The notes under the pieces are model-generated. The model saw nothing but the letters and a program-made list of their open reading frames with translations, did no database searches and was not told the origin of the DNA. 64,000 nucleotides of DNA, taken from positions 9,491 to 73,490 of the forward strand of contig CAIKLQ010000501.1 of the NCBI GenBank assembly GCA_903828255.1, written 5' to 3'. This stretch comes from an uncultured Verrucomicrobiota bacterium. Lineage in GTDB: Bacteria; Verrucomicrobiota; Verrucomicrobiia; Limisphaerales; JADLHS01. Positions 3,341-47,604 of the stretch are shown here, piece after piece (positions within the stretch are counted from its first letter, which is position 1; each line of letters begins with the position of its first letter). Both the position numbers and the translations under genes were made by a program.

Positions 3341-3349
3341 TGCAAGATT

Positions 3350-5430: not shown

Positions 5431-5438
5431 GCGACCGC

Positions 5439-8255: not shown

Positions 8256-8259
8256 TCCC

Positions 8260-10589: not shown

Positions 10590-10602
10590 CTCCAGTTTCA
10601 TA

Positions 10603-10621
10603 TTGGCAGCGTGTCTGCCAA
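10603..10621 (+). promoter_or_regulatory. Candidate sigma-54 -24/-12 promoter within a perfect inverted repeat
   Basis: TTGGCAG-CGTGT-CTGCCAA: GG(10605-6)-N10-GC(10617-8), 22 nt upstream of the ATG at 10641. Confidence 0.4.
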
Positions 10622-10640
10622 CCGGGTTGAATGCATTTCC

Positions 10641-13360: not shown

Positions 13361-14791
13361 CTAGTTCTGGAGGAGGTCGCGTAGTGATATTTCTTGCCAG
13401 TAGGAGCTTTGCCGACGTTGCGCGAGGCTGTTGTCAGCCCCTTGATTGCCGCGATTCAGGTTGAACTCGAAAGACTTGTCTACCGTTTTGCCGTTCCATT
13501 GGATTCGCACGATGCCTTTCACGCTGCCTTTGGTGTCGAACATGTTTAGCCACACCGATACATCTTCGAGACGGGCATGCTTGACCTCGACGTATTCCCA
13601 ACTTGCCGTCCAGTCGCCACTTCGTCCCTGTGGCCCGGCGTGGCGGATGTCGCGGAAATACACGGCATCCGTGGCCTCCGCGCGACGCCAGAACACTTCA
13701 GGTGCGCCGGGACGGGCGGCGACATAGAGATCAACGTCGGCTGTGGATGCCGCGTGTGCCGAGGCCTCCCAAAGAGCGGCAATCCCGATGCGTCCGGCTG
13801 GCGTCCTGGGAATCTCCGTGACGGCTTTCGCAATCGCGGCGGATTCCACCTTTGGGCTGGATACGGGTGGGGCAATGGCTACCGGGGCATTTGTCGGAAC
13901 TGCGACCGGGCGGTTGGGTGTTACGGCGGGCGGGACATTGATGCGCGATTCCACTCTGGGTGCATTCTCACGCCGGAAGATCGGCGGGGGGCGCATGACC
14001 AAACCCTGGTCGTTCGGGTCCAGTGTCGCAGTCAAAACGGGCGATGCCTCACCTTGCGCGGCCCGCTCGAACACGCGGGCAATGTCACTGCCGAACGTGC
14101 TCAACGTAGCGCCCTGCTCCGCGATAAACACCGACCAAAACCGCGTGACAGCGCGGCGGTGCATTTCCCCGACGGCCCAATCGTCTGAAGGCGTCAACCA
14201 GTGAACGGTTGTGTTCTGCAACTGCCCTTTGCGCTCCTTGGAGCCGAACAAAGACTCGGTGACGGATGCGGCGACCATGCCGTCGCTCGGCGTCAGCCCT
14301 TTCTCCATGTCAAAAGCAGCCTCGCGCTCATTAGATGCGAGATAGAGCGGTGATCCGATCACAATCACCGCAAGTTTTTCCTGGCCCTGACGAGCGCGGA
14401 CGACTCCATCGAGAAGTTGAGGCAGGCGGAGTTGCGTCGCCTGACGCAAATCTGCGGCCGTGGGCGTTTTCAGGAATTGGACCAAGCCAACGAACTTGCC
14501 GGCATATTCACGGCTGTTGGCGCGGGCGCGTGCCGTTCCTTCTGGCACAACCACCAATGCGAGGCGATTGCCTTGTGGCGCGGCAAGGAACTCAACTCGA
14601 TCACCCGGTTGGGCACGATTCAAGAGCAAGTCCATGCTCTGCTTGAAAGCGTCCTGGCTTTGATTCGACGAAAGTCCACCACAGATTGCGACCACGTAGT
14701 GGCGTGGCGCTTCCCCAGCGGGCGCGGCGCTCACAATCAAGGCGGTCGCAAATGTGATGACGGCAACGAGGATGGATTGGATGGTTTTCAT
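13361..14791 (-). CDS. Secreted protein: signal peptide, vWA-like alpha/beta domain, Pro/Ala linker, YfaP/DUF2135-like beta domain
   Basis: Start ATG 14791 overlaps the upstream TGA; signal peptide 'MKTIQSILVAVITFATALIVSAA'; linker 'PPAVTPNRPVAVPTNAPVAIAPP'; 'ALW...ADVDLYV..RPG'. Confidence 0.6.
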   Translation of the reverse strand: MKTIQSILVAVITFATALIVSAAPAGEAPRHYVVAICGGLSSNQSQDAFKQSMDLLLNRAQPGDRVEFLAAPQGNRLALVVVPEGTARARANSREYAGKFVGLVQFLKTPTAADLRQATQLRLPQLLDGVVRARQGQEKLAVIVIGSPLYLASNEREAAFDMEKGLTPSDGMVAASVTESLFGSKERKGQLQNTTVHWLTPSDDWAVGEMHRRAVTRFWSVFIAEQGATLSTFGSDIARVFERAAQGEASPVLTATLDPNDQGLVMRPPPIFRRENAPRVESRINVPPAVTPNRPVAVPTNAPVAIAPPVSSPKVESAAIAKAVTEIPRTPAGRIGIAALWEASAHAASTADVDLYVAARPGAPEVFWRRAEATDAVYFRDIRHAGPQGRSGDWTASWEYVEVKHARLEDVSVWLNMFDTKGSVKGIVRIQWNGKTVDKSFEFNLNRGNQGADNSLAQRRQSSYWQEISLRDLLQN

Positions 14792-16011
14792 GATTTGGGT
14801 TTGTTGTTCTTGTCGTCGAGGAATTGGTTTAGAAGTTCGCTGGTCTTGCGAGAACGCTCGGACTCCGCTGCGGCGAGGCGATACAACTCCACGGCGCGGG
14901 TGACGAGCTGGTTGCGCTTGGCTTCGATAATTACCAGTTTGCCTTGGAACAGGCCGACCTTCTCGCGTTCCTCGCGAAGCCCGAAAGCCTGCTTGTCCAA
15001 ATCCGTTTTGACGCGCGTCCACATGGGGTTTTCGGCACGCACGGACGGGCGATGGCGTTCCACAATTTGGGTCGCCGTAAGCCACATTGCTCCGGCGACG
15101 AGGTTGCCAACCAAAAGTTGTAGCGCGAACGTCCACCAAGAGTTTGAACCGTGCGACACCGCGTCAAGCGATGCCATTGACGCGAGCGGGTCGGCTGTGA
15201 TGCGCGAGTAGGTCTGCGCAAAGATCGGGACGGCCGCTGCCAGTGACACCATTGCCAGCGTGAATACGACGAACGCGTAACGGCGGCGGGCAAAGTCCGT
15301 ATCTAACCAGTTTGCCAGCGACTTGATCAGGAAAGCCCCACCGACAATTACCGACAGGTTGAACATCGCGGCTCTCCAGTAGTGTCCGCGAAAAGCCTCA
15401 ATGCCGCTCTCCAGCAGAGTGACTGCGGCACTGTTGATGTCCACCCACAGCAAGAGAAAGCTGAACACCACAATTCCCACCAACTGTGCCGCGTTCCACC
15501 AAGTCCACGGTTGTTGCGATTGGCGCTCGACTTCGATGTAGCGGTCGGTGCGTGTGAGGCGCGCAGTAAGTTCGCGCAGATGGGCTTCCCCACTGCGGAC
15601 ATTCGCCGCCATGTCCTGCAATACCTGACGGAGAACCCCCTCCATATCCGCCCAAATGGAGTTGAACTTCGCAATATGGTGATCGCGCACTACGGCTTCA
15701 CCGCTGCCGTTCCACGCGGCGGAGAGGATCACGTCTTTGTCGGGGTGGATTTCCGGGCGATCCTTCTTCGTTACCCAATAGTCCATCCGGCTGCTGATGA
15801 ACGGGCCAGGGGCTGCATCAACTTCCGCGTGGTGCGCACCGTTGCCGTTGTGCCCCGCGCCATTCACCGAGACCGGCCCTGACGAAACAGGAGTCGGTTT
15901 CGCTGCCCCGTTCCCATTGTGGCCGTTCGCGCCATTGTGCGCCGGGAGCGAGATGTTTTGCTCGGGCAATGCGCCGTCCTGCTTCGGGGTGATGTTGCGG
16001 TTTGTCTTCAT
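14788..16011 (-). CDS. Multi-pass membrane protein flanked by coiled coils (407 aa)
   Basis: About four hydrophobic segments. Start ATG 16011 has AAGGA and a sigma-54-like promoter directly upstream. N-terminal GHNGNGA repeats. Confidence 0.7.
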   Translation of the reverse strand: MKTNRNITPKQDGALPEQNISLPAHNGANGHNGNGAAKPTPVSSGPVSVNGAGHNGNGAHHAEVDAAPGPFISSRMDYWVTKKDRPEIHPDKDVILSAAWNGSGEAVVRDHHIAKFNSIWADMEGVLRQVLQDMAANVRSGEAHLRELTARLTRTDRYIEVERQSQQPWTWWNAAQLVGIVVFSFLLLWVDINSAAVTLLESGIEAFRGHYWRAAMFNLSVIVGGAFLIKSLANWLDTDFARRRYAFVVFTLAMVSLAAAVPIFAQTYSRITADPLASMASLDAVSHGSNSWWTFALQLLVGNLVAGAMWLTATQIVERHRPSVRAENPMWTRVKTDLDKQAFGLREEREKVGLFQGKLVIIEAKRNQLVTRAVELYRLAAAESERSRKTSELLNQFLDDKNNKPKS

Positions 16012-16024
16012 GCTTTCCTTTACA

Positions 16025-16041
16025 AGCGGCGGTGTTGCCAA
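16025..16041 (-). promoter_or_regulatory. Sigma-54-type promoter with variant -12
   Basis: TTGGCAACACCGCCGCT, GG-N10-GC; the -12 C is 15 nt from ATG 16011. Confidence 0.7.
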
Positions 16042-16159
16042 TGTTTCGTCGCCCGGAATTGGATTGATACGTTGGAGTTTTTGACCCGCCGCAGGCGCAT
16101 TGGATATTTCCGGTTGCAGATTCGCTACCAGGAGGTGTTTTTGCCGCACTTCGTCTCCG

Positions 16160-17815
16160 CTACTTGTCGAGTTCTTCAAGCAGCGTCACGCTATTAGCGA
16201 ACGCGCTGCCGAGGGTCTTGTAGCGTTCAGCCAGGCCACGGCGGTCTTCCGTGTTGATGCGATAATCGCGGTGCGCCGCCTGCAAATGCTCCGCCGTCAT
16301 TGCGTCCACGGTGTCGTCGAAGAAGTTTTGCTTGGCGCGAGTCACCATTTCCTCAAGGTCCGCTCCACTGTAGAACTCGCTTTCCGCCGCAATTTTTGAA
16401 ATCACGGGACGGATTGCATCCTCCGCCATGACAGGTTTAGGCCGACGGCCGATCAAACCAAGGTGCATTTCCAAAATCTGTTGCCGGGCCTGCTGATTGG
16501 GATAAAGAAACGGGATGACGTAACTGAACCTCCCGGGACGCAGGAACGCGGGGTCAAGGTCGCCCGGCACATTGGTCGTGCCGACGATGATGGACTTGCG
16601 GTTGGCATCGCCGAGCCATTCCAGCATTTGAGCGAATACCCTGCTCGTCTCCTGTGAGGCGCTGTCGCCCTGGCCCGACTTCCTGCTGCCGAACCGATCA
16701 ATCTCGTCCACAAACACAATGGCAGGCGATGCCTGTTCTACCATGTGAATCGCATCTCTCACTCGCTGGCCGGACTCGCCGAGATATTTTGAAAACAGGT
16801 TCTCCGTCTTGAGGTTGATAAACGGTAGATTCGTTTCTCTGGCGAGGGCCTTGGCAAAAAGTGTCTTGCCTGTGCCCGGCGGGCCAAAAATGAGAATTCC
16901 GCGCGGTAGCGGAAGTGCGGCTCGCACAGCTCGTTCCCGCTGTTGAAGCGCCCGCACAAGATTGCGCTGAACCATCCGCTTGACGCCGTTGTAGCCACCC
17001 ACGTCGTCGAAGCCGACCGATGGGTCTTCGATTTCTAGTATGTCGGAACGGCGGATGAAGTCGGCTTTGAACTTCTTCACCGTTTCCAAATCAACCCCAT
17101 CGCGCCTGCCAGCCTTGGCGGCGCGATAGGCTTTGTAGATGACGACATCCGTCTGGTGAAGCGTGAGGCCGGCGGTGGCGAGAGTGAGCGCGTTCAGTTC
17201 CTGCTCCGCAAGGCGAACTCCTGATTTCCGCGCGAACGCGCAGATGATTTCCCTTCTTTCGGCATCGCTGGCCAGTTCGGGCCGGGCCAGAACGCTCATC
17301 CCCAATGTCACTTCATCCATCGCGAGCAAGGGGCGGGATGTCACCCAGCACACCACGGATTTCTTGGCGAGAATGTCGCCGTCCTGTGCCCAAGAGCGCA
17401 CCGCGTTCAAGGCGTCCAAGTTCTTGACCGAGTTGCCCTCCGGCTGATCGAGGCCGGATAGAATCAATGCGGTCTTCTCGCGCTTCAACTGGCTGTCCAT
17501 GAATTTGAGCGCGCCTTGCAGGTCTTTTAGTTCGTTTTCAAGGCCAGCGCCGTAGTTGGAATCCACCGGAGCAGTCACAGCGGCAAAGTTGTCACGCTTC
17601 GTTTCCCACTTCTCCAACCCTTTCCAAGGATGGAAACGATAGACATGCTGTCCGAAAAGGCTGACGAGGTATTTCTCCAATTGTCGATTACGGTGAAAGT
17701 CAACGGTCTGCGCGGTCACGACTGCAGAGGCGCTGCAAAGGACTTCCATCATGGCGTTCTCCAGCCAACGGATGTCGAATGTCGGGGTGTTGGATTCGGG
17801 TTGTGACAGTGCCAT
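16160..17815 (-). CDS. Ycf46-like AAA+ ATPase (inactive N-terminal AAA-like half plus active C-terminal AAA)
   Basis: 'FDDVGG', 'PRGILIFGPPGTGKT', 'VFVDEID', 'LDPAFLRPGRF', 'YSGADLE'; start ATG 17815 chosen from the promoter position. Confidence 0.85.
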   Translation of the reverse strand: MALSQPESNTPTFDIRWLENAMMEVLCSASAVVTAQTVDFHRNRQLEKYLVSLFGQHVYRFHPWKGLEKWETKRDNFAAVTAPVDSNYGAGLENELKDLQGALKFMDSQLKREKTALILSGLDQPEGNSVKNLDALNAVRSWAQDGDILAKKSVVCWVTSRPLLAMDEVTLGMSVLARPELASDAERREIICAFARKSGVRLAEQELNALTLATAGLTLHQTDVVIYKAYRAAKAGRRDGVDLETVKKFKADFIRRSDILEIEDPSVGFDDVGGYNGVKRMVQRNLVRALQQRERAVRAALPLPRGILIFGPPGTGKTLFAKALARETNLPFINLKTENLFSKYLGESGQRVRDAIHMVEQASPAIVFVDEIDRFGSRKSGQGDSASQETSRVFAQMLEWLGDANRKSIIVGTTNVPGDLDPAFLRPGRFSYVIPFLYPNQQARQQILEMHLGLIGRRPKPVMAEDAIRPVISKIAAESEFYSGADLEEMVTRAKQNFFDDTVDAMTAEHLQAAHRDYRINTEDRRGLAERYKTLGSAFANSVTLLEELDK

Positions 17816-17828
17816 ACAAAAGGAAGGG

Positions 17829-17845
17829 AGCGGCGGAAGTGCCAA
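17829..17845 (-). promoter_or_regulatory. Sigma-54-type promoter with variant -12
   Basis: TTGGCACTTCCGCCGCT; the -12 C is 15 nt from ATG 17815. Confidence 0.7.
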
Positions 17846-18032
17846 TTCGCATCGCGCAATCAGTTGGATTCTCAGAAACGGTGATTCTCGTGTTGTGCCA
17901 GTGAGCTATGACACAAACTTAAAGACGTAGTTATTTATAGTCGCTTCAAACGTGAGCCACGTTCACGTTTGGCAGCCGCTGAGGGGCTAAAAGGTCTTGG
18001 GGTCGAAGGGGGTTCAATTCCAGAAAAACGGA

Positions 18033-19607
18033 TCAGAGATTGCGCGGTGGTGGGGGAAACGTCTCGTCCCAAGCTGCTACGACTTCGAAAGTTCTCAGGT
18101 TAATGTAATATGCTCTGGCCCGCTCCACACATACTGTTGATAAAGCAATGATTCTGATCCACTGCCCGCTAACACTAGCGACGCTGCACCGACTAACTGA
18201 ACAAAACTCATTGGAGGCGAACACCTCCGGGGCAACCAACCAAGTTTGAGGTGCAAGCAGAATGCCTTCTTTTCCCGACTCAAGCGTGGCCAAAAGGATT
18301 CCGGCATCTTCCGAAATAATTATCAGGGATTGGTATTCAGGAGCGACTATCCAATCCCCATCCCAGCCCATCCAGCCACATTTCGTTTCCCCGGATCGAG
18401 GCAGCGACTCGGCAATGAAACGGGTCTGCGTGGAGCGCGGACTTGCGGACATGTCGAACGGTAACATGCGTTGGATTTGTCCAGTCGAGTCGAGTAGCGC
18501 CCACTTGCCATCACGTTTCGCCCATGCCGTGCGCAATCGAACGTGTGGAAGGGTCAATATTTCATAGTCCGGCGGCAGCATCCATTTCCCACCAAAATCC
18601 ATCCAACCCCAGCGCTCGTTTTCTTGAACAAGCACCAGCCCTAGCTCCTCATTGAGATCTGCGATCCGGTCAAACTTGGGAGGCATCACCCACTGTCCAT
18701 CCCGGTTGAGAATCCCCGTTGGCCCAGCGTCACAACTTGCTATGCAGAGGCTTCCGCCCTGCTTGAACCAACCAGGAGGAAAACTGCCATTGATTTCGGG
18801 GCAGGCGACATGTGTGCCGTCGCGCCTGACAATGTGCCATTGTCCCCGTCCGCCAAACGTTGTTCCAACGCGAATACGACTGTTCGGGGTGTCAATTGCT
18901 TCGTCGTATGCACGCCCTTCTTTGGCCCAGGCAATTTCGCCTGCGCGCCGAGGAGCCTCCCAAGATGCAAACCTTGGGGTGATTGCCCATGATCCGTCAG
19001 GTCGAAGAAGCCCCCACGAGCCCTTCCGGCATGCCCAGAAGAGAGCGGCTTCATTGTCGAACGGGGTAATTTCTTCGAATGTCGGCGTCACAACCCATTT
19101 TCCTGTCGCATCAATCAATCCCCAATCAAGTTTCAAGCAAGCCGGTGCGAGTTTAGAAGTGGGATGGAATCGCTTTACCTCAGTGAACTGTCGCGGAATA
19201 CGCCATTCACCTTCCGGGTTAATAAAACCCACCCTAAAGCTGCTGCCGTCTTCCGCGCGCCGAGCTGCGGCCAACCCGGAAACCGGATCAAAGACGTCCA
19301 ACCAGTCAAAGGATGGGGCGATGACCCACTGACCGGCGCGGTTGACGGCGCCGAACACCCTGCCTGTCTCCGGCATGTCCGTTTTTCCGTCCTCTTCGCC
19401 CTCGGTTGTATTGAGGCTGGGAAAAATCGTCTCCGCTATAGCCAGTCCACTGGCGTCATCGAAGTCCGACAAGTGTAAGAATTGGGGTTCAATTACGATA
19501 CGTCCGCAACCATCTATCGCTCCCCATTTACCAGCACGAACAATTGGAAAACGCAAACCGCTCAAGTCCTCATTACAGACTTTGTTCGAGCTGATTTCCG
19601 TGTGCAT
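18033..19607 (-). CDS. WG-repeat (KWG-type) protein
   Basis: Repeats 'GKWGAIDGCGRIVIEPQF', 'WGLIDATGKWVVTPTF', 'WGWMDFGGKWMLPPDY'; no signal peptide evident. Confidence 0.85.
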   Translation of the reverse strand: MHTEISSNKVCNEDLSGLRFPIVRAGKWGAIDGCGRIVIEPQFLHLSDFDDASGLAIAETIFPSLNTTEGEEDGKTDMPETGRVFGAVNRAGQWVIAPSFDWLDVFDPVSGLAAARRAEDGSSFRVGFINPEGEWRIPRQFTEVKRFHPTSKLAPACLKLDWGLIDATGKWVVTPTFEEITPFDNEAALFWACRKGSWGLLRPDGSWAITPRFASWEAPRRAGEIAWAKEGRAYDEAIDTPNSRIRVGTTFGGRGQWHIVRRDGTHVACPEINGSFPPGWFKQGGSLCIASCDAGPTGILNRDGQWVMPPKFDRIADLNEELGLVLVQENERWGWMDFGGKWMLPPDYEILTLPHVRLRTAWAKRDGKWALLDSTGQIQRMLPFDMSASPRSTQTRFIAESLPRSGETKCGWMGWDGDWIVAPEYQSLIIISEDAGILLATLESGKEGILLAPQTWLVAPEVFASNEFCSVSRCSVASVSGQWIRIIALSTVCVERARAYYINLRTFEVVAAWDETFPPPPRNL

Positions 19608-19654
19608 AGCGTTGATGTTGAGCAGGCAGTTTGCGCTGTCAATCGAATACCCGT

Positions 19655-21337
19655 TTAACCAGCTCGTAAACTCTTGTTTCCGCTTTTCCGTTTCCGCTCG
19701 CGCGCCGAAGGAATCTCAAGCTCTTTGCGGTAGTTCTCAATGGTCTTTCGCGACAGGATCAGGTCTTCCTCCTTTTCAATGGCCTTGGCGAGTTGCTCAT
19801 CGCTCATCGGATGCGCGCGGTCTTCATGGCGGATGAAATTCATGATCCATTCCTTCACGATGTCCGGCAGGTAACGCACTTCCTGACCATCGGTGTTGCT
19901 GGCTTTTTCTCCGGGTGAACACAGCAGTTTGAGCGGCTTTACCTCGCCGTTCGGCAGGCGAACAAACTTGTCCTGCACGGCGCGACTGACAGTTGATTCG
20001 GAAAGCGCCTGCCCACCGAATTCCTCAAGCTCAAGTTCCGCCCCTGCGTCCGCTGGGCTAAAACATTGAAGGTCAAAACCCTTGCCTGATTTCAAAAACG
20101 GTTTTTGCCGATGGGCTAGGACGGTTGCCACGCGTAGAAGGGTCGTGCGGCGGTCCTCGCAGGCCCGGAGGAATTGCATCACATGCTCCTTACATTCCTC
20201 CTTTTGCTCCCGTTTGATCGTAAGCCCGACGATTTTGTCCTTTGCTTTCGCGCCCGCATCGCCCGGCAGATTCTTTGCCTCACGGAGTGATTCGAGTTGT
20301 TCCTTGAGGTCGTCAATATCCACAAGCAGCGTCTTGCTGATGGAGAGGTGCTCGTATCGGCTGCCGCAAAGTTCCACAGTGAAGCTCCCACCCGGCGACA
20401 GCGAAATGGCAATATCAGGACCGACTCCATCAGGTGATTGAAGGTGGTGATTCTGCCACGGCGTTACTTCCTCCTCGTGCTGGTCCACCGGATGCGGCAC
20501 GGCTTTCAACAGCCGTTGGAGTGTTTGGCGCACTTGCACTTCGTCAATCCCCAGGCGACCTGCAACCGTTTTCGATAACTCCAACGCCACGCACTCGCAG
20601 TCGGTTTGGGACATCACGGAGCTTGCCCCGGCGGTGATTTCCCGCAACTCGCCCGCTTCGACAAGCCCGGCCATGCAGGAGGCGATGCGCCATTCTGGCG
20701 TTTCGTGGCGAGCGTGGCGTTCGAGAAGCAGCCGTCTGGCATCCCAGGCATTGCGGGCAGCGACACCGACCGGTTCGCAGTGCTGGATCAGAGCGAGAAC
20801 TGCGGACAAATCCGCAACTGCCACGCCGCAGGCTTTCGCACATTCATCCATCTCCTCGGTGAAAAATCCTCGGCTGTCCAGCGCCTCCACGATGAACGCC
20901 GCGATGCGATGCCGATGTTCTGCCAAGCGGCTCTCTTTCAATTGAGCCATGATTCGCTCACGGAAATTCGCCGGCGCGGTGAGGTAATCTTCCGGCGTCC
21001 AGTCTCCGTCACTTGATACTCGCGATGTCGCGCCTTCGCTCGCCTGACCAATTTCGCCAATGAAGTCCTTGGCCTCATTCTCGCGGTCGGAAGCGGCCGA
21101 ATTTTCAGGCGAGGATTCCTCGGAAGCATCCTCGTTCGTCTCTGCATTGGCCTGCGCGTCCTGCTGCTCACCCTGCGTTGACGGAACAGCATCCACGAGG
21201 TTCTGTTCCTCCAGTGTTTCGGCCGCCGCGTCAACCTCTCGCTGCGTCATCTCCAACACCTTTAGACCCAGCACGAGTTTCTGGTTTAGGGCGAGCGTTT
21301 GCCGCTGCTTTTGGGTGTGGCGAAATCCGAGCGTCAT
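19655..21337 (-). CDS. rpoN: Divergent RNA polymerase sigma-54 factor
   Basis: Region I 'QKQRQTLALNQKLVLGLKVLEM'; 'IVEALDSRGF', 'IQHCEPVGVAARN', 'RRTTLLRVA..L..RQK.F'; HTH 'SESTVSRAVQDK'; 'ED...PMSDEQL'; RpoN box 'SRKTIENYRKELEIP'. An in-frame upstream ATG at 21442 is possible. Confidence 0.9.
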   Translation of the reverse strand: MTLGFRHTQKQRQTLALNQKLVLGLKVLEMTQREVDAAAETLEEQNLVDAVPSTQGEQQDAQANAETNEDASEESSPENSAASDRENEAKDFIGEIGQASEGATSRVSSDGDWTPEDYLTAPANFRERIMAQLKESRLAEHRHRIAAFIVEALDSRGFFTEEMDECAKACGVAVADLSAVLALIQHCEPVGVAARNAWDARRLLLERHARHETPEWRIASCMAGLVEAGELREITAGASSVMSQTDCECVALELSKTVAGRLGIDEVQVRQTLQRLLKAVPHPVDQHEEEVTPWQNHHLQSPDGVGPDIAISLSPGGSFTVELCGSRYEHLSISKTLLVDIDDLKEQLESLREAKNLPGDAGAKAKDKIVGLTIKREQKEECKEHVMQFLRACEDRRTTLLRVATVLAHRQKPFLKSGKGFDLQCFSPADAGAELELEEFGGQALSESTVSRAVQDKFVRLPNGEVKPLKLLCSPGEKASNTDGQEVRYLPDIVKEWIMNFIRHEDRAHPMSDEQLAKAIEKEEDLILSRKTIENYRKELEIPSARERKRKSGNKSLRAG

Positions 21338-21382
21338 ATTCGTTGGTCTTGGTTGTCGCGTTTTGGTTTCTGATTTTAAGAA

Positions 21383-21502
21383 GCGCGTTCTGTTGCCAGG
21401 TCGCGTGCACCCCGAGGCCGAGTCAGGCATGTCGAATGTCATTTAGGAGTCGCCCATAGTGATTTCCTTTCTGTTGGTTTTGTTGGTGGCTTGGGTCATC
21501 GA
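21383..21502 (-). ncRNA. Candidate structured leader or sRNA, copy 1, containing mini-ORF MGDS* (21457-21443)
   Basis: Predicted TSS about 21502; C/A-rich leader; GAAAGGAAA RBS; hairpin CGCG-AC-CTG-GCAA-CAG-AA-CGCG with a GNRA tetraloop. Confidence 0.5.
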
Positions 21503-21512
21503 GTGGACACTT

Positions 21513-21529
21513 AGCGAGAGTAATGCCAA
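21513..21529 (-). promoter_or_regulatory. Sigma-54-type promoter with variant -12, upstream of rpoN
   Basis: TTGGCATTACTCTCGCT, GG-N10-GC. Confidence 0.75.
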
Positions 21530-21592
21530 CCGGGAAAATTGCTCCAAGCAGAGCGCAGCGCGGCCTCTACGGTCTGGGGATCTACCTGCGCG

Positions 21593-21607
21593 GCTACGCC
21601 CGGTAGC
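21593..21607. promoter_or_regulatory. Candidate upstream activating sequence GCTAC-N5-GTAGC
   Basis: Perfect inverted repeat centred 74 bp upstream of the -24 G; identical sequence and spacing in copy 2. Confidence 0.6.
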
Positions 21608-21631
21608 AATTGCGTAATCGCTGCTACCCGT

Positions 21632-22048
21632 TCAAGCGGATGTGTCCGGCCGAAATCCGATTGGTGCTCGCCATTGCTTTGGGGCGAGACGCTTCTCGAC
21701 TGCTTTTGCCATTGCCTGCATTTGAGCCTCGTTCAGCGTCGCCAGGGTTGCGCTCATTTCTGCGGCTGCGGCGCGGTCTCCGATGCTCTGGAGCATGTCT
21801 TTCACGTCGGCAATCAAAGCCCCAGCCAGCGGCGTCCAATTACCGTCCTTTTCTCGCAGCAATGGAGCGCGCCGAGTAACCTCGCGAACCCAGCCTTCGA
21901 GCAGCCAGTTCCACTTCTTTGCAAACAGTTCCGGGTTGTTTTCGGCTAGGTCGGCCAGATAATGCGTTCTCAGTTTTTTGCGCCGTTGGCGGCGGGCCTG
22001 AGATCTCGTGCTGGCAGGCGGTTGCTTTTCTGAGGCGGATTGTTTCAT
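21632..22048 (-). CDS. Small basic helical hypothetical protein
   Basis: ATG 22048 preceded by GGAG; follows the VirD4-like gene; ends in 'PIGFRPDTSA'. Confidence 0.55.
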   Translation of the reverse strand: MKQSASEKQPPASTRSQARRQRRKKLRTHYLADLAENNPELFAKKWNWLLEGWVREVTRRAPLLREKDGNWTPLAGALIADVKDMLQSIGDRAAAAEMSATLATLNEAQMQAMAKAVEKRLAPKQWRAPIGFRPDTSA

Positions 22049-22109
22049 CGCGGCTCCGGAATCTGAGTTTATTCTATTGGCCTGTGAATGGATGGCGAGG
22101 CGGATTTCC

Positions 22110-24662
22110 TCATTTGCGGTCTTCTTTCTTGGCTTCGTTGGCTCCCATTGTCTTGGCCCAATCACGGCGAGCGACAATTGCAGCCTCCACCTCGGCGACT
22201 GGGCGCGTGTGTGCTCGTTCACGCAACTCCCAAACGACTGGATTGACCCGCTTCTGACGACCGCCCCATTTCGCAGGCAGAGTGGCGAAGACGAACGGTC
22301 GGGTTGGCCCCCGTCCCGTCATGATCCGCGCCACGGCGTGATAATTGGGCAAACCTTGCAGGTCCAAAGCACCAAATTCCGGTTGGGTGTAAAGGCGAAG
22401 TTTTTCGGCATCGGGGGCACCCACGCGAAAGGCAATCAAGCTGCCCACATTGCCGAGGACCGCCTCCATGACATTTTGCCGACCGGCGTTGGCGGTGAGC
22501 TGGCTTAGGTTCTGGTTTGCAAGGGTCAAGTGGAGGCCATACTTCCGCGCTTCGGCGAGCATGAATGCGGCCCCGTCGTTCACGAAGTTCTGGAACTCAT
22601 CCACGTAAAGATGAAAAGCGTGACGCTTATGTATGGGCACGTCAGCACGGCTCATGGCGACCGAAAAAATGCGCGAGAGAATAAAGGACCCTAGCAGTTG
22701 GGCATCGAATTCACCCAGCAAACCTTTGGGAAGTTTGACCAGCAGAATCCCCTGGCGGTTCATAATGCCCCGGAAATCAATCGTGCTCTCGGCCTGACCC
22801 ACAATCGGTCGAATGAGGGCATTGTAAGTAAATGAGTTCAGCTTGCAGGTGATGTAGGGGGCAATGTTGGCCAACGCGGCATCCCCTCCGGCCTTTTCGG
22901 CAATGTCCCTCCAAAAGCCGATGACGGTTGGGTTCTTGCAGCGCCCCAATAGAAACTGCCGATAAGCCCTGTTCTCAAAGACCAGCGACATCTCCATTAT
23001 GGTTACGGCCGGCAGATCACTTTCCAAAAGGAGCAACAATGCGTTGCGGAAATACGTCTCGAACATCGGCCCGCCAGCCTGGCGCATGTCATACATCCGG
23101 TCGAAGGTCTTTAGCAGCTCGTTGACGGCGAAGTTGATCTGCCTGCCACGACCCGGGCCACTGCATTCGAGGATATTCAGGCCAGGAGCAAAATCTGACT
23201 GCCCGGGATTAAAAAGCACGACGTCCTTCGCTCTGCTCAACGGCAGGTTTTCAACAATCTGGTCATAGAGATCGCCATGCGGATCAATCAGGCACACGCC
23301 GCGTCCTTCGCGAATGTCCTGGCGTATCATGTTGGCCAGCAGCGTGGATTTTCCCGTGCCGGTAGCCCCCAACACATACACATGGCGGCTGCGCGCGGCC
23401 TGCTCAAGGTGAACACTCTGACGCCCTGTTTCGTTTATGGTGCCAAGGAGCAAACCACTTTGATCCAATTCGGGAGAACGTAGATTGTAATGACGACGAA
23501 CTCTAACCCGTGAGAACGTCTCCAGCGTTGGAAACACAGGAGGCAAGGAAACACCGGCGGGCAGGCAGCCCTCAAGGTGCAGTTGTCTTGTGACATTCTC
23601 CGGCCTTGAACCGGCGGGTTTTGCCGAGCCGTTTGTGATCTTGGCGGCAACCACGTTCACGGCGCTGCCGAGGACTTCGGCACCGATCACGGCAAGCAAC
23701 GGCGCTAGGGCGGTCTCCTCGGCGACCGCCCTGCAATCAAGTTTTACACCTTGAGGTGATTCAACCCACCGCTTGAGTGTGGTTTCTACAGGGCCGGCGG
23801 CTGAGGCGTCCAAGTGCTGATCGGCAAGTTGGCGCTCAAGGGCCGATGGATGCCGCCTCACCCAGGTCAATGTGTCCGCCACTTGCTGTTGCTGCACGGA
23901 AGTCAGATCGAAACGCCTCAGCTTGACCGAGAGATGAATGCGGGCGGGACTGTTCGCGACGACATCAGCCACGGAGCTGAACGAACGGGTCAGCCTTGAA
24001 GGCCGGGGCAGACTGACGAGAAGGTTCCCCGCAGTCACGTCCGGCTGCGGTTGGGCGAAGCCCAATGAGGCGGTCTGTGGGACGTTGAGGAGAAGCGTCT
24101 GAGCTTCAAATGAAACACCCTGAAGCGAGTTCCACACAGGGACTAATTGCTCTTCCGCATCTCCATTCTGGAATCGCATCGCCGGTTCACTTGCCAAAAC
24201 CAAAAGGAGATTCTGGCGCAACGATGCGGCTTTGCGAGCCGCTTCCTCTTCTGAATCAGCGTCCCGTATCCAGCCGTTGATTCGCCAGCAGAATTCGTGT
24301 CCGCCGCCGCCTCCGAAAACGAACTCCACCGAGGCATCACTAATCGTCTCATGGAGCATCTTGGACAGGAGGCGCGTGGAGCTTACCGAGGTTTCACTCG
24401 AACGCCCATTGGACACGCTGCACCCGTTCAGAGCGACTCCTGACAAGTTGAAGGGAACATTCGCGCCGAATCGTCCGGTTTCCCGGTTCTCGGCGACTAC
24501 AAACCCTTCATGTTGCTTCCGAAAGCGCCATTCCGTTCGGCTTTCCTCATTCGGAGCGGCCTCCGTAAATCTTGCCGGGATGGTTGGAACGCTCTCAGGA
24601 AGTTCTCGCGACACAAGGGAGTCGGGCGGGCAACACGGCATCGTTTCAATAGTGGTTGTCAT
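22110..24662 (-). CDS. VirD4/TraD-like (HerA-FtsK superfamily) ATPase without an evident membrane anchor
   Basis: 'RHVYVLGATGTGKST', 'LIDPHGD', 'LYVDEFQNF', 'EARKYGLHLTLANQNLSQL', 'GNVGSLIAFRVG'; start ATG 24662 preferred. Confidence 0.85.
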   Translation of the reverse strand: MTTTIETMPCCPPDSLVSRELPESVPTIPARFTEAAPNEESRTEWRFRKQHEGFVVAENRETGRFGANVPFNLSGVALNGCSVSNGRSSETSVSSTRLLSKMLHETISDASVEFVFGGGGGHEFCWRINGWIRDADSEEEAARKAASLRQNLLLVLASEPAMRFQNGDAEEQLVPVWNSLQGVSFEAQTLLLNVPQTASLGFAQPQPDVTAGNLLVSLPRPSRLTRSFSSVADVVANSPARIHLSVKLRRFDLTSVQQQQVADTLTWVRRHPSALERQLADQHLDASAAGPVETTLKRWVESPQGVKLDCRAVAEETALAPLLAVIGAEVLGSAVNVVAAKITNGSAKPAGSRPENVTRQLHLEGCLPAGVSLPPVFPTLETFSRVRVRRHYNLRSPELDQSGLLLGTINETGRQSVHLEQAARSRHVYVLGATGTGKSTLLANMIRQDIREGRGVCLIDPHGDLYDQIVENLPLSRAKDVVLFNPGQSDFAPGLNILECSGPGRGRQINFAVNELLKTFDRMYDMRQAGGPMFETYFRNALLLLLESDLPAVTIMEMSLVFENRAYRQFLLGRCKNPTVIGFWRDIAEKAGGDAALANIAPYITCKLNSFTYNALIRPIVGQAESTIDFRGIMNRQGILLVKLPKGLLGEFDAQLLGSFILSRIFSVAMSRADVPIHKRHAFHLYVDEFQNFVNDGAAFMLAEARKYGLHLTLANQNLSQLTANAGRQNVMEAVLGNVGSLIAFRVGAPDAEKLRLYTQPEFGALDLQGLPNYHAVARIMTGRGPTRPFVFATLPAKWGGRQKRVNPVVWELRERAHTRPVAEVEAAIVARRDWAKTMGANEAKKEDRK

Positions 24663-24804
24663 GGGGAAAATGGTGGGTGAATCGTTTTGTTGAATTGAAG
24701 GGCTTGATACAGGGAAGAACACACTCCACCTGTTCAAACGGGGCCACACAAGAAGGGGCACCCTTCAGACCAACACAAATGTGCTTACGGATTAAAAGGG
24801 GGTT

Positions 24805-24821
24805 AGCGGCGGTCGTTCCAT
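24805..24821 (-). promoter_or_regulatory. Sigma-54-type promoter with variant -12, upstream of the VirD4-like gene
   Basis: ATGGAACGACCGCCGCT, GG-N10-GC. Confidence 0.6.
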
Positions 24822-24909
24822 TTGCGCAAACAACTGAACTCCGGTTCGAAATCGTATCCAAGAGTCTGAACGAGGAACGCCAATGAAATCGGCGCGAAGA
24901 ATGTGAGAT

Positions 24910-25027
24910 GCGCGTTCTGTTGCCAGGTCGCGTGAACCCCGAGGCCGAGTCAGGCGTTGCGCGTTAATTATTAGTCGTTCATAAAGTTTTCCCTTCTGTT
25001 GGTTTGGTTGGAGGCTTGGAACACCGA
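24910..25027 (-). ncRNA. Candidate structured sRNA, copy 2, containing mini-ORF MND* (24982-24971)
   Basis: Predicted TSS about 25027; RBS GAAGGGAAAA; same conserved core; the downstream gene has its own promoter. Confidence 0.5.
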
Positions 25028-25037
25028 GTGGACACTT

Positions 25038-25054
25038 AGCGAGAGCGATGCCAA
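25038..25054 (-). promoter_or_regulatory. Sigma-54-type promoter with variant -12
   Basis: TTGGCATCGCTCTCGCT. Confidence 0.75.
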
Positions 25055-25116
25055 CCCGATAATTTGTTCGAGAGCGCCCTTCTGCGTCCATTTCGCGCAC
25101 CAAATCTCTCGACCTC

Positions 25117-25133
25117 TGCTACGCCCGGTAGCA
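25117..25133. promoter_or_regulatory. Candidate UAS TGCTAC-N5-GTAGCA between divergent sigma-54 promoters
   Basis: Perfect inverted repeat, about -98 from the leftward TSS and about -126 from the rightward TSS. Confidence 0.6.
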
Positions 25134-25223
25134 ACCGTGTAATCGGCGCTATCCACCAAGCCCCATCAAGCAGACGAGAGTTGCTTCGCGCATGCCCAAG
25201 CCAAACCCACGCGCCTTCAACAA

Positions 25224-25240
25224 GTGGCACAAGCGCCGCT
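25224..25240 (+). promoter_or_regulatory. Sigma-54-type promoter with variant -12 for the rightward operon
   Basis: GTGGCACAAGCGCCGCT; the -12 C is 17 nt from ATG 25256. Confidence 0.75.
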
Positions 25241-25255
25241 TGAATTGATTCGTGC

Positions 25256-26143
25256 ATGAACACTCCAACCCGATCAGCCGAACCAACGATTCGTTGCATG
25301 GACTGCGGTCGCAAGAACGATGCGAGCGAAAGCGTCTGCGAGTTTTGTGGTGCGACACTTCGTTCGAGCCAATCATCGTTCGCCGAACCTCCCGGCGGCA
25401 ACAGTGCTGGAGTGCGCCCCAGCCTGCCTCCGCCGCTTTTCTCGGCTAACGCCGTATCGCCAGTCTTCCCGTTCTCCGGGCCGTTGACCCGCTCCTCATC
25501 GGAGCTGGAGTCCATCTCCGCTAAAAACGAGGACCAGCGGGTTACGGGCGCGGAACTGAGCGGGCGCGTGATTGCCGCCGAGCCGGTCGTTCATGAGCAG
25601 CCCGATTTCGACTGGTGCAAGCTCGTGACCCGCCTCCTCTGGTTTCTGTTGCTGGTCGTTTCGCCCTTCGTTCTGCTGCGCACGGTGCTCGTCCACTTGG
25701 GGGCATTGCCGGTTGTCTTCGCCGTCGTGGGATTCCTGTTCCTGCTCCGGTTTTTCAGTCCCACGAATATTATTTCGCTACTTCATCTTCACATGCTTTT
25801 GAATCCGCTTCGTCGTAACGAGGCCGAGCAAGTTCCCGTCCGCTACTTTCGCGTCCGTGATACTCAGGAGCGGGAGTGGGTTGTGCGGATGAAGGGACAG
25901 GTCAACGGTGGCAACATTGCGCCCGATGACTTGATTTCGGCCTGGGGCAGATGGCGCAGCGGCACGCTTTCCCTGACGCGCGCTTACAATCACCGAACGC
26001 AGAGCTACGCCTCCATCAGAAGTTCGCAATCGTGGATCATGCTCACGGTAACGGTGGGGGTGATCCTGTTCCTCGGCATATACTTCTACGATCCGCTCCA
26101 CGCGATGTGGCAGATGATGCACCGGATGGGAGGTTCACAGTGA
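25256..26143 (+). CDS. Zinc-ribbon membrane protein with an OB-like beta domain
   Basis: 'CMDCG...CEFCG'; about three hydrophobic segments; beta-rich 'VRYFRVRD...VVRMKG..GG.IAPDD.I.AWG'. Confidence 0.7.
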   Translation: MNTPTRSAEPTIRCMDCGRKNDASESVCEFCGATLRSSQSSFAEPPGGNSAGVRPSLPPPLFSANAVSPVFPFSGPLTRSSSELESISAKNEDQRVTGAELSGRVIAAEPVVHEQPDFDWCKLVTRLLWFLLLVVSPFVLLRTVLVHLGALPVVFAVVGFLFLLRFFSPTNIISLLHLHMLLNPLRRNEAEQVPVRYFRVRDTQEREWVVRMKGQVNGGNIAPDDLISAWGRWRSGTLSLTRAYNHRTQSYASIRSSQSWIMLTVTVGVILFLGIYFYDPLHAMWQMMHRMGGSQ

Positions 26144-28713
26144 CGTTACCCGAAAAAATCAGTGGATTGGAAGGTGGTCATTTGGACGGCACGGGACTGC
26201 CCCAATTCTCCATGGAGTATTTCTCCGGTTGGGGGTTCGTGCGCGTGCAAAGCCTCGCGCGCTTTTGGGATACGCCTGAGTCAGCGAGTCAGACATTGGA
26301 ATCGGCGCAGGAGGCGTTCTATTCCGGCCTGCACGCGGCGCAATTACCGTGGGGTCTGCTGGTCCTCGGAGAGCCAACCCGCGTTTCGATCCATTTCGTG
26401 CTTCCCGGTGCGGGCAGTCGCTTGGCGTCCTGGAGCGGTGCGATTAAAGGTGCGCTTCCCGGATGCGAACTCGCCGACGATGTATCCAACCAGCAAATCT
26501 GTTCGCAGTTGGAGAAAATGCCGTTTGCCGTTGCCGTCACGGGGAATCCGTTTGTGGGAAATGTAGATGAAGGCTCGCAGCGAGTTGTTCGATCAGAAGG
26601 TGGGCGATTGGAGCGCGTGCTCTGCTCGTTGCGCGGTCGTGCATTCGCGTATCTGGTAGTCGCTCGCCCAGTGAAGCTGCCAGAAGTGGAGCGGACGCTG
26701 AACAACCTCACCATTGAGGAGCGTGAAATCCGGTCGGCGTTCATGCGGAAAGGCTCATCCGAAGACGGCAACAATCCCCGCGCGCAGCACTACCTGGAAC
26801 TGCTTCGGGTTTCGCGCGAAAATCATCTCGCCGGGCGGAATATCGGCATGTGGGATACCGGGGTTTATCTTCACACAGCGGATCAGAGCACTCTCATCGA
26901 GGGGAGTCGGGCGCTTCATGGGGTTCTGACGGGAGCACGAAACCAGCCTCAGCCCATCCGAGTGAATGTCTGCGAACGTCCCGCCCAAGGTCGGTTTGAG
27001 CCGGTTTTCACCCGCTTGAATTCCAAGGAAGTCATGGTTTTGACATGCCTGCCGAAAGAGGAATTGCCGGGCTATGAAATTCGCCAGCGGGTGTCTTTTG
27101 GTGTTTCGCCAGTGCTGCATGGAGCGGGAGACGTGGTGGATGTCGGCGTCGTTCTCAAGGACAGCCAGCGGACAGGCAATTGGTTTTCCGTTCCGGTGAA
27201 TGATTGGGCGCGGCACGCTCTGATCGCGGGTGTTTCCGGTTCGGGCAAGACGAACACCTGCAAATCCATCCTTTTTCAGTGCTGGCACGACCATTCCGTT
27301 CCATGGCTGGTGCTCGAACCCTCAATCAAGTCGGAGTATCGCACGCTGCTCAAGTCGAAGATTGGCGCGGATGTCCGCGTCTTCACACTTGGCGATGAAA
27401 CAGCCGTGCCATTCCGCCTGAACCCGTTGGAAGTCATGGCGGGCATCCATGTGCAAACGCACATTGATGCGTTGCTCGCGCTTTTCAACTCGGCCTTCGC
27501 CTGGGTTTCGCCAATGCCGGAAGTTCTTAACCTCGCCGTTCACCGACTCTACACAAACTTCGGCTGGGACTTAGCCACAGGCAGTCGTCACAAGACGGAC
27601 GGTTCAGAGCAGCCGACTTTGCGGGATTTGTTGGCGGTCATTCCGGGGTTGGTCGGCGAACTCGGCTACAACGACGACATTTCCTCGACGATTCGCGCAG
27701 GCTTGCTCACGCGACTTTCCAGTCTGTCGCTCGGTGCGAAAGGGCTGATGTTGAATTCCGGCCATTCCATTCCTTTCGACTACCTGCTCGCCAAGCCGAC
27801 GATTCTTGAAATGGCTACCATCGGCAACGAGGAGGAGAAAGCATTCCTGCTTGGGGCGGTTTTAGTGCGGCTCGCGCAATACCGCCAGCGCCAAGGAACG
27901 ACGGATGGGAAATTACGTCACCTCCTGCTGATTGAAGAAGCTCATCGGCTGTTGTCCGCCGTGCCTTCACAGGTCGCGTCCGAAGTCGCCAATCCGCGCG
28001 GCAAGGCGGTAGAAACCTTTTGCCATCTGTTGGCGGAGTTGCGGGCGTTTGGGCAAGGCATTGTCGTCGCGGAACAAATCCCTGCGAAACTCGCGCCGGA
28101 TGTTGTCAAGAACACGACGGTGAAGATTGTGCATCGGCTCGGTGCGAATGATGACCGCCGCCTGCTCGGTGGAACGATGAATCTCGATCCCTCCCAAGAG
28201 AAGTTCCTCTCCACGCTGCGTAATGGTCAGGCCGTAGCTTACACTGAAGGGCGTGAGACGGCCTTCCATATTGGAGTTCCCCACTTCGAGCATGGGCAGA
28301 ACCCGCTTCCCGTTCCGACGAAGGAAGAAATTGTTGTTCACATGCGCTCACAGTTGCCAGAGATGCCGCCGATCACACATGCGCTACGCAAAAAGCACAC
28401 AACTGCTACTGCTGATAACATTCCATCTTGTGCCGGCTGTCTACCCAGCTCTTGCACCATGCGGGGCGTAGTGCTGCAAAAGTTGGCGAAGTCTGGTTGG
28501 GAAGCGGAATTCGAGGGATCAATTGAACGCGGCTGGAAGGGAATTTGGGAGTTTGGCATGTCCGCCGCTAAAACCCTCCCTGTGACGAATAAACCCAACT
28601 GCGCCTACTGTGTCCTGATGAACATCGCCGCATTGAACCGCTGGGATGATGAAACCGTGGAACGAATGCGGCGCAATCTCGCGGCGCTCCGAGACAACAT
28701 GGCAATCTCCTGA
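26140..28713 (+). CDS. HerA/DUF87-like ATPase with a C-terminal Cys cluster
   Basis: GTG 26140 overlaps TGA and has a GGAGG RBS; 'RHALIAGVSGSGKTNT', 'LLIEEAHRLL', 'EQIPAKLAPDVVKNTTVKIVHRL'; 'CAGC...C...CAYC'. Confidence 0.85.
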   Translation: MTLPEKISGLEGGHLDGTGLPQFSMEYFSGWGFVRVQSLARFWDTPESASQTLESAQEAFYSGLHAAQLPWGLLVLGEPTRVSIHFVLPGAGSRLASWSGAIKGALPGCELADDVSNQQICSQLEKMPFAVAVTGNPFVGNVDEGSQRVVRSEGGRLERVLCSLRGRAFAYLVVARPVKLPEVERTLNNLTIEEREIRSAFMRKGSSEDGNNPRAQHYLELLRVSRENHLAGRNIGMWDTGVYLHTADQSTLIEGSRALHGVLTGARNQPQPIRVNVCERPAQGRFEPVFTRLNSKEVMVLTCLPKEELPGYEIRQRVSFGVSPVLHGAGDVVDVGVVLKDSQRTGNWFSVPVNDWARHALIAGVSGSGKTNTCKSILFQCWHDHSVPWLVLEPSIKSEYRTLLKSKIGADVRVFTLGDETAVPFRLNPLEVMAGIHVQTHIDALLALFNSAFAWVSPMPEVLNLAVHRLYTNFGWDLATGSRHKTDGSEQPTLRDLLAVIPGLVGELGYNDDISSTIRAGLLTRLSSLSLGAKGLMLNSGHSIPFDYLLAKPTILEMATIGNEEEKAFLLGAVLVRLAQYRQRQGTTDGKLRHLLLIEEAHRLLSAVPSQVASEVANPRGKAVETFCHLLAELRAFGQGIVVAEQIPAKLAPDVVKNTTVKIVHRLGANDDRRLLGGTMNLDPSQEKFLSTLRNGQAVAYTEGRETAFHIGVPHFEHGQNPLPVPTKEEIVVHMRSQLPEMPPITHALRKKHTTATADNIPSCAGCLPSSCTMRGVVLQKLAKSGWEAEFEGSIERGWKGIWEFGMSAAKTLPVTNKPNCAYCVLMNIAALNRWDDETVERMRRNLAALRDNMAIS

Positions 28714-42918: not shown

Positions 42919-42922
<4 letters not shown>
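42476..42922 (+). CDS. Small HNH-like nuclease
   Basis: 'DYFTGE.L', 'PTVDH', 'LCSWRMNDSKND'; ATGA-coupled on both sides. Confidence 0.6.

Positions 42923-47600
<4,678 letters not shown>

Positions 47601-47604
<4 letters not shown>

Follow-up and report, generated by a model that had tools for sequence, protein, structure and literature searches.

A variant sigma-54 and a family of promoter-like sites with C at -14 on an accessory island of a Verrucomicrobiota bacterium

Sigma-54 is usually treated as a single, nearly invariant recognition system, with TGGCAC-N5-7-TTGCT as the promoter consensus given in the relevant part of PMC12316311. Here we analyse a 64,000-nucleotide (nt) stretch of contig CAIKLQ010000501.1 from an uncultured Verrucomicrobiota bacterium, in which a deviant gene for sigma-54 (rpoN) lies on a large accessory island among short, promoter-like sequences that share an altered -12 element. 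All coordinates are those of this stretch, which we call the window; the contig itself is 92 kb long and belongs to a fragmented genome assembly of 8.9 Mb.

The closest described systems each share part of this arrangement. Cereibacter (Rhodobacter) sphaeroides holds the paralogues RpoN1-RpoN4 in one cell, each with its own gene set (PMC11999139, citing Poggio 2002, 2006; PMC12316311), and the sections of these two papers that treat specificity assign it to a single promoter position, -11, beside the -12 GC, together with the cognate enhancer-binding protein. Several sigma-54 paralogues, cognate activators and a one-position discriminator are also what we would predict for the island system; on the accounts just cited, however, the C. 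sphaeroides discriminator sits at -11 whereas the island shift is at -14, and the island sigma stands far apart from other sigma-54, having an altered RpoN box, an insert in the helix-turn-helix and a putative regulon on the island. The C. sphaeroides paralogues are not known to depart from the canonical RpoN box and helix-turn-helix, and serve chromosomal housekeeping programmes (nif, fla). A second sigma-54 gene on a mobile element is known from the Mesorhizobium loti symbiosis island ICEMlSymR7A, whose rpoN2 serves genes of the element according to the part of PMC3538637 that deals with it, and from rhizobial plasmids; as far as these sources describe them, the proteins are ordinary sigma-54 acting at ordinary NifA-type promoters, unlike the island sigma. 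Finally, the engineered sigma-54 variants R456H/Y/L (Liu et al. 2025, PMC12096077) resemble the island system in their changed RpoN box, their own promoter set and their activator gating, but they alter the -24 GG, whereas the island -24 element is unchanged, its shift lies at -14 on the helix-turn-helix side, and the system is natural.

Set against these systems, the ~14-30 kb block of the island would be a self-contained private sigma-54 regulon, a reading that we hold to be probable, though well short of secure. What the sequences show is the motif family and its restriction to the island, its conservation together with the sigma gene, the divergence of the sigma protein, a second, canonical rpoN in the host, and an activator gene on the island.

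A clustered motif family with C at -14

The six 17-mers on which an earlier, sequence-only reading of this DNA rested all occur exactly as it had quoted them, five on the minus and one on the plus strand and each with GG-N10-GC. It had also described their orientation and -12 side correctly: each lies within non-coding DNA or at its margin and is directed at the next gene, and YCGCT stands in all six, CGCCGCT in four. The pattern it proposed for scanning, TGGMA-N7-YCGCT, is one base too long and matches one unrelated site but none of the six. With TGGMA-N6-YCGCT, seven matches were found in the window, adding to the known six a perfect match, TGGCATGTCCGCCGCT, at 28554-28569 (+), absent from the earlier list. 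The chance level for this pattern is 0.80 +/- 0.78 per window, and none of 100 shuffles reached 7; the whole 8.9-Mb genome holds 149 matches, 7 of them clustered in 13 kb of this contig. A position weight matrix (PWM) built from the seven sites themselves scored them at 22.3-27.0 and the rest of the 92-kb contig at 14.9 or less. One PWM match, at contig 8709-8730, was rejected, lying inside a periplasmic-binding-protein gene. A weaker sequence, with the core AGGAACTTCCGCCGCT at 29328-29343 (+) and a score of 13.0, may be an eighth family member. The sites are as follows.

16025..16041, minus strand: P1, TTGGCAACACCGCCGCT, 13 nt 5' of the ATG of the gene for a 407-amino-acid (aa) membrane protein
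17829..17845, minus strand: P2, TTGGCACTTCCGCCGCT, 13 nt 5' of the ATG of the AAA ATPase gene
21513..21529, minus strand: P3, TTGGCATTACTCTCGCT, 175 nt 5' of the variant rpoN start
24805..24821, minus strand: P4, ATGGAACGACCGCCGCT, 142 nt 5' of the coupling-protein-like gene
25038..25054, minus strand: P5, TTGGCATCGCTCTCGCT, paralogous to P3 and placed upstream of P4, with which it forms a tandem pair
25224..25240, plus strand: P6, GTGGCACAAGCGCCGCT, 15 nt 5' of the ATG of the zinc-ribbon gene, divergent from P5
28553..28569, plus strand: P7, TTGGCATGTCCGCCGCT, in the 3' end of the HerA/VirB4-like open reading frame (ORF), 158 nt before the ATG at 28727
29327..29343, plus strand: P8, AAGGAACTTCCGCCGCT, a weak candidate 26 nt 5' of the ATG at 29370

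All seven firm sites face the gene that follows. Six of them are in non-coding DNA; P7 lies within the last 160 nt of the preceding ORF. The spacing from GG to GC is 10 bp throughout, and the -24 side reads TGGCA in six sites and TGGAA in one. The departure is on the -12 side, where the canonical TTGCW with T at -14 is replaced by YCGCT in every window site; C stands at -14 in 7/7 of these and in 6/6 sites of related contigs (13/13 together). Two sequence classes can be told apart, TCTCGCT (P3, P5) and CGCCGCT (P1, P2, P4, P6, P7), with C at -14 and T at -11 common to both, and most sites additionally carry CCGC just upstream. The sites had previously been counted as separate; since P3 and P5 lie in two copies of one duplicated module, they are not independent, and the family comprises about six independent sites.

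The "altered -12 element" of the earlier reading is thus a real and consistent shift of consensus, but a smaller one than that phrase implied, mainly C for T at -14. Table 1 of PMC2831329 gives T at -14 in 16 of 18 known E. coli promoters, and C in glnA and dcuD, the figure of 2/18 for C being our own count from that table. The glnA promoter, glnAp2, reads TGGCACAGATTTCGCT (PMC2831329, Table 1), which is the TGGCA-N6-TCGCT form of P3 and P5. What is an exception in E. coli is the rule on the island, where most sites also add the upstream CCGC. The motif alone proves no changed specificity, because E. coli sigma-54 uses TCGCT at glnAp2; judged from the aligned sites, the consensus shift is real and falls at a position touched by the helix-turn-helix, and orthogonality is plausible.

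The motif recurs in related DNA: all four metagenome contigs found to encode close relatives of the island sigma (68-91% identity) also carry it. Two of them (L014, L015) have it 175-182 nt upstream of rpoN, with TGGCA and CTCGCT invariant and the spacer bases varying, so that a promoter-like site precedes rpoN, as claimed earlier for P3, in these relatives too. The other two (L017, L016) have it 13 nt before the AAA start codon, as at P2; among the three sequences 15/16 motif positions are invariant and the DNA upstream of about -26 to -30 is unrelated. A further copy in L016 lies 13 nt before a membrane-protein gene, the spacing seen at P1, and L015 has a copy 16 nt before another membrane-protein gene. 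Nineteen loci with canonical sigma-54 gave 3 motif matches in ~300 kb. The family of sites is real, specific to the island and inherited together with the variant sigma.

The 20 sequencing runs listed for the region include none of RNA. Contigs of four runs from four studies could also be aligned to it, and relatives 88-97% identical occur in sludge, wetland, volcano and other samples. In these alignments homology breaks 2-4 nt from the upstream edge of P2 (in 3 of 4 runs), P4 and P5, and a loose contig end in run X7 carries a P1 variant, TTGGCAGCAACGCCGCT, 12 nt before the same ATG. Breakpoints between related elements at motif edges would suit a motif that is no promoter at all, serving instead as an operator of another island protein or as a recombination or module-junction sequence, with GG-N10-GC a coincidence; the same could be said of its position 12-16 nt from a start codon in four cases, one of them with a Shine-Dalgarno-like sequence downstream. 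We think this very improbable, given that the -24 consensus TTGGCA(C/T) with exact GC spacing in 7/7 sites is unlikely by chance, that a sigma-54 and an activator are encoded alongside, that all sites are co-oriented with genes, and that no alternative promoter-like signal was seen. Sigma-70-like sites in the block numbered 2 against 6.4 +/- 2.7 expected, and none lay before the rpoN, AAA, coupling-protein or zinc-ribbon genes, with the limit that the housekeeping consensus of the host may differ from the one searched.

The rest of the genome shows a different pattern. Outside this contig, 18 of 142 matches to TGGMA-N6-YCGCT are intergenic, which is the 13.3% baseline, whereas 15 of 39 matches to TGGMA-N6-TTGCT are intergenic, several of them resembling textbook sigma-54 promoters. 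TGGCA-N6-TTGC has zero matches in the window. Because intergenic enrichment outside the contig is found only for TTGCT, and because the window holds no TTGC form, host sites look canonical and the island form looks confined to the island. The sequence-only reading had named host promoters that already use YCGCT genome-wide as a result that would undo it; the host-type intergenic sites read TTGCT. Island-type SGCCGCT matches elsewhere in the genome were rejected as promoters, 19 of 21 being inside called ORFs. Separately, genome contigs C128 and C849 contain tandem 42-nt repeats with periodic TGGAA-N6-CCGCT on one strand inside long ORFs, which probably encode repeat proteins and which push up the genome-wide motif counts.

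The variant sigma-54 and its clade

The sigma gene of the block is the following.

19655..21337, minus strand: variant sigma-54 gene (560 aa, P0001), with the Pfam domains Sigma54_DBD and Sigma54_CBD

Its DNA-binding domain (PF04552, 88.5 bits, cut-off 22.8) and core-binding domain (PF04963, 81 bits, cut-off 22.9) pass their thresholds. Region I (AID, PF00309) stays below its cut-off at 17.5 bits against 23.8; the Gln/Leu-rich N-terminus aligns with region I, with LNQKLV where TPQLQQ is conserved elsewhere. The NCBIfam equivalog TIGR02395 likewise falls short, at 181.6 bits against 277.35. The translation does contain the two deviations pointed out earlier, SESTVSR and SRKTIENYR. The second is the RpoN box, canonically ARRTVAKYR with both arginines, of which the first is retained here and the second is Lys; xRKTIENYR occurs in 17/17 members of the clade described below, and RR in 162/165 other sigma-54 proteins with a readable box. 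Throughout the clade an 8-residue insert, EEFGGQAL, directly precedes the recognition helix in the helix-turn-helix of region III, and further invariant signatures of the clade are SESTVSR for HESTxSR, LPNGEVKPLKLLCSP for TPRGIFELKYFF and, in region I, LNQKLV for TPQLQQ.

The island sigma-54 is a genuine outlier and belongs to a tiny, isolated clade. A word-indexed search of 5.8 billion proteins returned 16 relatives at 47-91% identity, followed by ordinary sigma-54 at ~25%. When a clade profile was run against 1.84 billion representatives, 10,453 sigma-54-like matches were obtained, with the clade confined to 2 full-length clusters and 3-4 fragments and the score dropping from 893 to 140 bits at its edge. 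No close relative of the variant was found in 185,579 species genomes, where all 11 loci were canonical, or in any of 400 other sampled genomes of the phylum, and the variant is absent from the PLSDB plasmids and IMG/VR viral contigs searched; 103 plasmid records with rpoN-like genes, mostly rhizobial, encode proteins at most ~25% identical to it.

According to Liu et al. 2025 (PMC12096077), R456 shows 100% conservation and no other residue has been found there in nature; the authors ask why nature has left it undiversified. At the protein level the clade is a natural counter-example, with Lys at this position in 17/17 members. Three other sigma-54-like representatives, P0173, P0212 and P0284, also lack the double Arg (SEDTIYMYR, ATRTVAKYR and ARTTVVKYR) and are further exceptions to the claimed invariance.

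A second, canonical rpoN, for which the earlier reading had suggested looking, is present on contig C93 of the same assembly, with ARRTVAKYR and 189.5 bits; its nearest named relatives are those of Pedosphaera and other Verrucomicrobiota. That the island sigma-54 is an accessory, island-borne paralogue is supported.

A host sigma-54 could also be the reader of the island sites. They would then be genuine -24/-12 promoters used by the host protein, or equally by both, with the island sigma a redundant or competing paralogue and C at -14 a form of tuning, e.g., for low basal binding. E. coli glnAp2 and dcuD, both with C at -14 (PMC2831329), speak for this account, as does the fully canonical -24 half. 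So does the protein: the part of PMC5505868 (Glyde et al.) that describes the contact places the helix-turn-helix on DNA around -14, where E378 and R383 form crosslinks, and the island sigma retains the equivalents of these residues (E. coli numbering) and of R455, in changed surroundings. The seven R456 substitutions for which the pertinent results of PMC12096077 report a loss of wild-type promoter recognition, moreover, do not include Lys. On the other side, YCGCT sites outside the island are not enriched in intergenic DNA while TTGCT sites are, canonical T at -14 is found in 0/13 island-type sites, and the motif travels with the variant sigma gene. We judge reading by the host sigma unlikely on balance, and were it correct the finding would shrink to an odd paralogue.

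A putative private regulon, its activator and a duplicated module

In the private-regulon reading, the island sigma together with host core RNA polymerase would recognise 7-8 promoters of the form TTGGCA-N6-YCGCT, most commonly TTGGCAyNNCCGCCGCT. The -24 half is canonical, and the -12 half differs from the host TTGCT at -14, which fits the changed helix-turn-helix. These promoters would serve the sigma's own gene, the AAA ATPase, the membrane protein, the coupling-protein-like ATPase, the zinc-ribbon protein with the HerA/VirB4-like ATPase, and two small genes. Apart from the sigma gene, the main genes concerned are these.

14788..16011, minus strand: gene for the 407-aa protein, with a low-complexity N-terminus and hydrophobic membrane-like stretches seen by eye in the translation
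16160..17815, minus strand: classical AAA ATPase (551 aa; CDC48/PAN/IetA-like), PF00004 at 118.4 bits, with NCBIfam and PADLOC matches
18033..19607, minus strand: WG-repeat protein, PF14903 at 130 bits, directly 3' of rpoN
22110..24662, minus strand: VirD4/TraD-like coupling-protein ATPase (850 aa), TrwB_AAD_bind at 36.5 bits, TraG-D_C at 30.4 bits, and SXT_TraD at 79.6 bits, below cut-off
25256-26143, plus strand: zinc-ribbon protein gene, with a weak match over residues 14-35 (16.6 bits, cut-off 25)
25951..28713, plus strand: HerA/VirB4-like ATPase, longest ORF 920 aa with an uncertain start, DUF87 at 27.7 bits, CedD, HerA and VirB4 below their cut-offs

The 407-aa protein has no Pfam, NCBIfam or PADLOC match. 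P3 would drive the variant sigma-54 and then the WG-repeat gene, which is probably co-transcribed with rpoN. P5 and P4 in tandem would drive the VirD4/TraD-like ATPase and a 138-aa protein, P6 the zinc-ribbon protein and the HerA/VirB4-like ATPase, and P7 with the weak P8 two proteins without a known family. For the zinc-ribbon gene, the match over residues 14-35 argues for the ATG at 25256 as its start. The island sigma as reader, the dependence on an activator, the transcription start sites and autoregulation are all inferred.

A start ~12 nt after the GC would leave leaders of 2-5 nt, and several mRNAs would be leaderless or nearly so, because the motif ends 12-16 nt before the ATG in four promoter types. 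P6 has no Shine-Dalgarno sequence before its ATG. Leaderless sigma-54 transcripts are not known to have been described, though no search aimed at them was made.

Opening of such promoters would require an enhancer-binding ATPase. The sequence-only reading, which had picked out the sigma gene and the motif family, overlooked the island's own enhancer-binding protein along with the seventh site; the former is the best candidate and lies 10 kb upstream on the same island.

8781..10589, plus strand: enhancer-binding protein (602 aa, P0049), PF00158 at 146.6 bits, cut-off 20.2

Its central AAA+ domain carries GAFTDG at the place of the GAFTGA loop. Elsewhere in the genome, a regular expression detects GAFTGA at 8 of 13 activator loci, and the 5 without a match are truncated or variant there. 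The parts of the protein N- and C-terminal to this domain gave no Pfam match at E<=1, including none to the Fis-type helix-turn-helix PF02954 in residues 431-602; some known activators likewise do without a Fis-type helix-turn-helix. About 65 full-length relatives were found, in assemblies labelled Anaerolineaceae, Verrucomicrobiota, Desulfobacteraceae and Nitrospinae. The loop was compared in 17 of them: it reads GAFTDG, GAYTGS, GAHDGA or GAFFGA in the closest and mostly GAFTGA in those farther away. This variation fits co-adaptation with the odd region I of the sigma; it would be accounted for just as well if contact with the sigma had been lost. For a sigma homologue (P0015) and an activator homologue (P0055) alike, the longest reported contig is one of 59,423 bp from ENA.

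A bolder form of the private-regulon reading, which we put forward only tentatively, is that of a natural and fully orthogonal triad: a remodelled sigma with Lys at R456 and the insert, a non-GAFTGA activator and a promoter grammar with C at -14, all carried by an island that spreads horizontally. A module for DNA translocation or defence would thereby be kept silent and insulated from host sigma-54, with several of its mRNAs leaderless.

Two regions of the block are copies of one regulatory module of 258 nt, and these are the only ones in the genome.

21372..21629, minus strand: module copy 1, with a candidate activator site (21593-21629), P3, a mini-ORF and a 46-nt block
24899..25154, minus strand: module copy 2, 75% identical to copy 1, with a candidate activator site at 25118-25154

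The candidate activator element, GCTACGCCCGGTAGC plus GGTAGCA-N13-TGCTACC, is conserved 65-100 nt upstream of P3 and P5, and its position would suit a binding site for the candidate activator; in copy 2 it lies midway between the divergent P5 and P6. The module invites a two-step cascade, in which host sigma-54 with a repeat-bound activator would fire P3 and P5 and so make the island sigma, which in turn would read only the CGCCGCT class (P1, P2, P4, P6, P7). Two sequence classes do exist, GCTAC-N5-GTAGC and GGTAGCA-N13-TGCTACC are conserved 65-100 nt upstream only in the TCTCGCT class, and TCGCT is the glnAp2 form. The inverted repeat of copy 2, however, is equally far upstream of P6, a CGCCGCT-class site, and both classes share the bases at -14 and -11. 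We therefore rate the cascade as distinctly improbable.

Several points weigh against a private regulon, in addition to the retained E378, R383 and R455 equivalents and the unchanged -24 element. Since canonical E. coli sigma-54 uses TCGCT at glnAp2, the host sigma could read at least the two TCTCGCT sites. The conservation of the motif rests on four short contigs, three of them close (84-91% identity), and is partly shared ancestry. The intergenic enrichments depend on crude genome-wide gene calls, made by an ORF plus GC3 heuristic that leaves 13.3% of bases intergenic. At P1, a Shine-Dalgarno-like AAGGAAAG stands between the -12 element and the ATG, and a start ~12 nt after the GC would exclude it from the transcript. 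As to the activator, its gene lies 10 kb from the sigma block in a different operon, the erratic loops of its closest relatives could mean that contact with sigma-54 has been lost, and its linkage to the sigma comes from two contigs only, the second indirectly through P0015 and P0055.

If specificity truly differs, the island would provide the first natural orthogonal sigma-54/activator/promoter triad, a direct test bed for the reading of -14 by the helix-turn-helix and an additional component for synthetic circuits. It would further mean that a mobile or defence island can carry an enhancer-dependent sigma of its own and thereby hold a costly module tightly off.

The module contains two further conserved features. 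A mini-ORF of 3-4 codons (MGDS*, MND*, MGDE*, MGGD*) follows P3 and P5 by ~55 nt, at 21442-21456 and 24967-24981 (-), the former in the rpoN leader; it is preceded by a strong ribosome-binding site, ACAGAAAGGAAA, and L014 and L015 have equivalents. Also downstream of P3 and P5 is the 46-nt block, GCCTGACTCGGCCTCGGGGT(G/T)CACGCGACCTGGCAACAGAACGCGC, at 21385-21430 and 24911-24956 (-), in which only one base varies among the two window copies, L014 and L015. It contains TGGCA-N7-GCGCT, i.e., the promoter motif with one more spacer base, and could serve the sigma as a decoy or roadblock, or else be the operator of a protein. As RNA the block shows no unusual folding. For the conserved rpoN leader, a reading as RNA structure was rejected, as the 183-nt leader folds no better than its shuffles (z 0.32). 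One metagenome contig of run X7 joins 21382 to 24910 and skips 3,527 bp, with a small gene and the coupling-protein-like gene, which reflects either a genuine deletion, produced when one repeat recombined with the other, or a collapse of the repeat during assembly.

The island and its host

The host is a soil or freshwater member of the Verrucomicrobia with a Pedosphaera-like genome (completeness 94%, contamination 6%, G+C 60.7%), and G+C ranges from 50 to 62% along the window. The label "island" is justified, and "conjugative element" would go beyond the evidence: coupling-protein domains are present, and the HerA/VirB4-like ATPase matches its families only below their cut-offs. The Pfam scan of 48 ORF translations gave neither an integrase nor a relaxase, with the island running past the contig end, and the window contains no tRNA and no match to an Rfam family.

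To the right of the promoter block runs a long stretch of defence-type genes, and to the left lies the operon that includes the activator gene. The main features are listed from left to right.

Left of the seven-gene operon: branched-chain amino-acid transporter genes, which look like ordinary chromosome
239-13355, plus strand: seven-gene operon for 1033-, 439-, 257-, 938- and 174-aa proteins, then the enhancer-binding protein, then a 914-aa PRTase-CE / PRTase_III-A-like protein
34444-47604, plus strand: DISARM-like set of a DEAD helicase with an MrfA zinc-binding domain (1738 aa), an SNF2 helicase (962 aa) and an Eco57I-type N6 methylase (1561 aa)
After the DISARM-like set: a GHKL ATPase, a 2499-aa sacsin-domain protein and a second SNF2 helicase

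SbcCD-like proteins, Mrr, WYL and PIN are also encoded on the right. In the left-hand operon, the 1033-, 439-, 257-, 938- and 174-aa proteins have no Pfam or PADLOC match; the operon may represent a defence or conflict system not yet characterised, with a sensor that feeds the activator.

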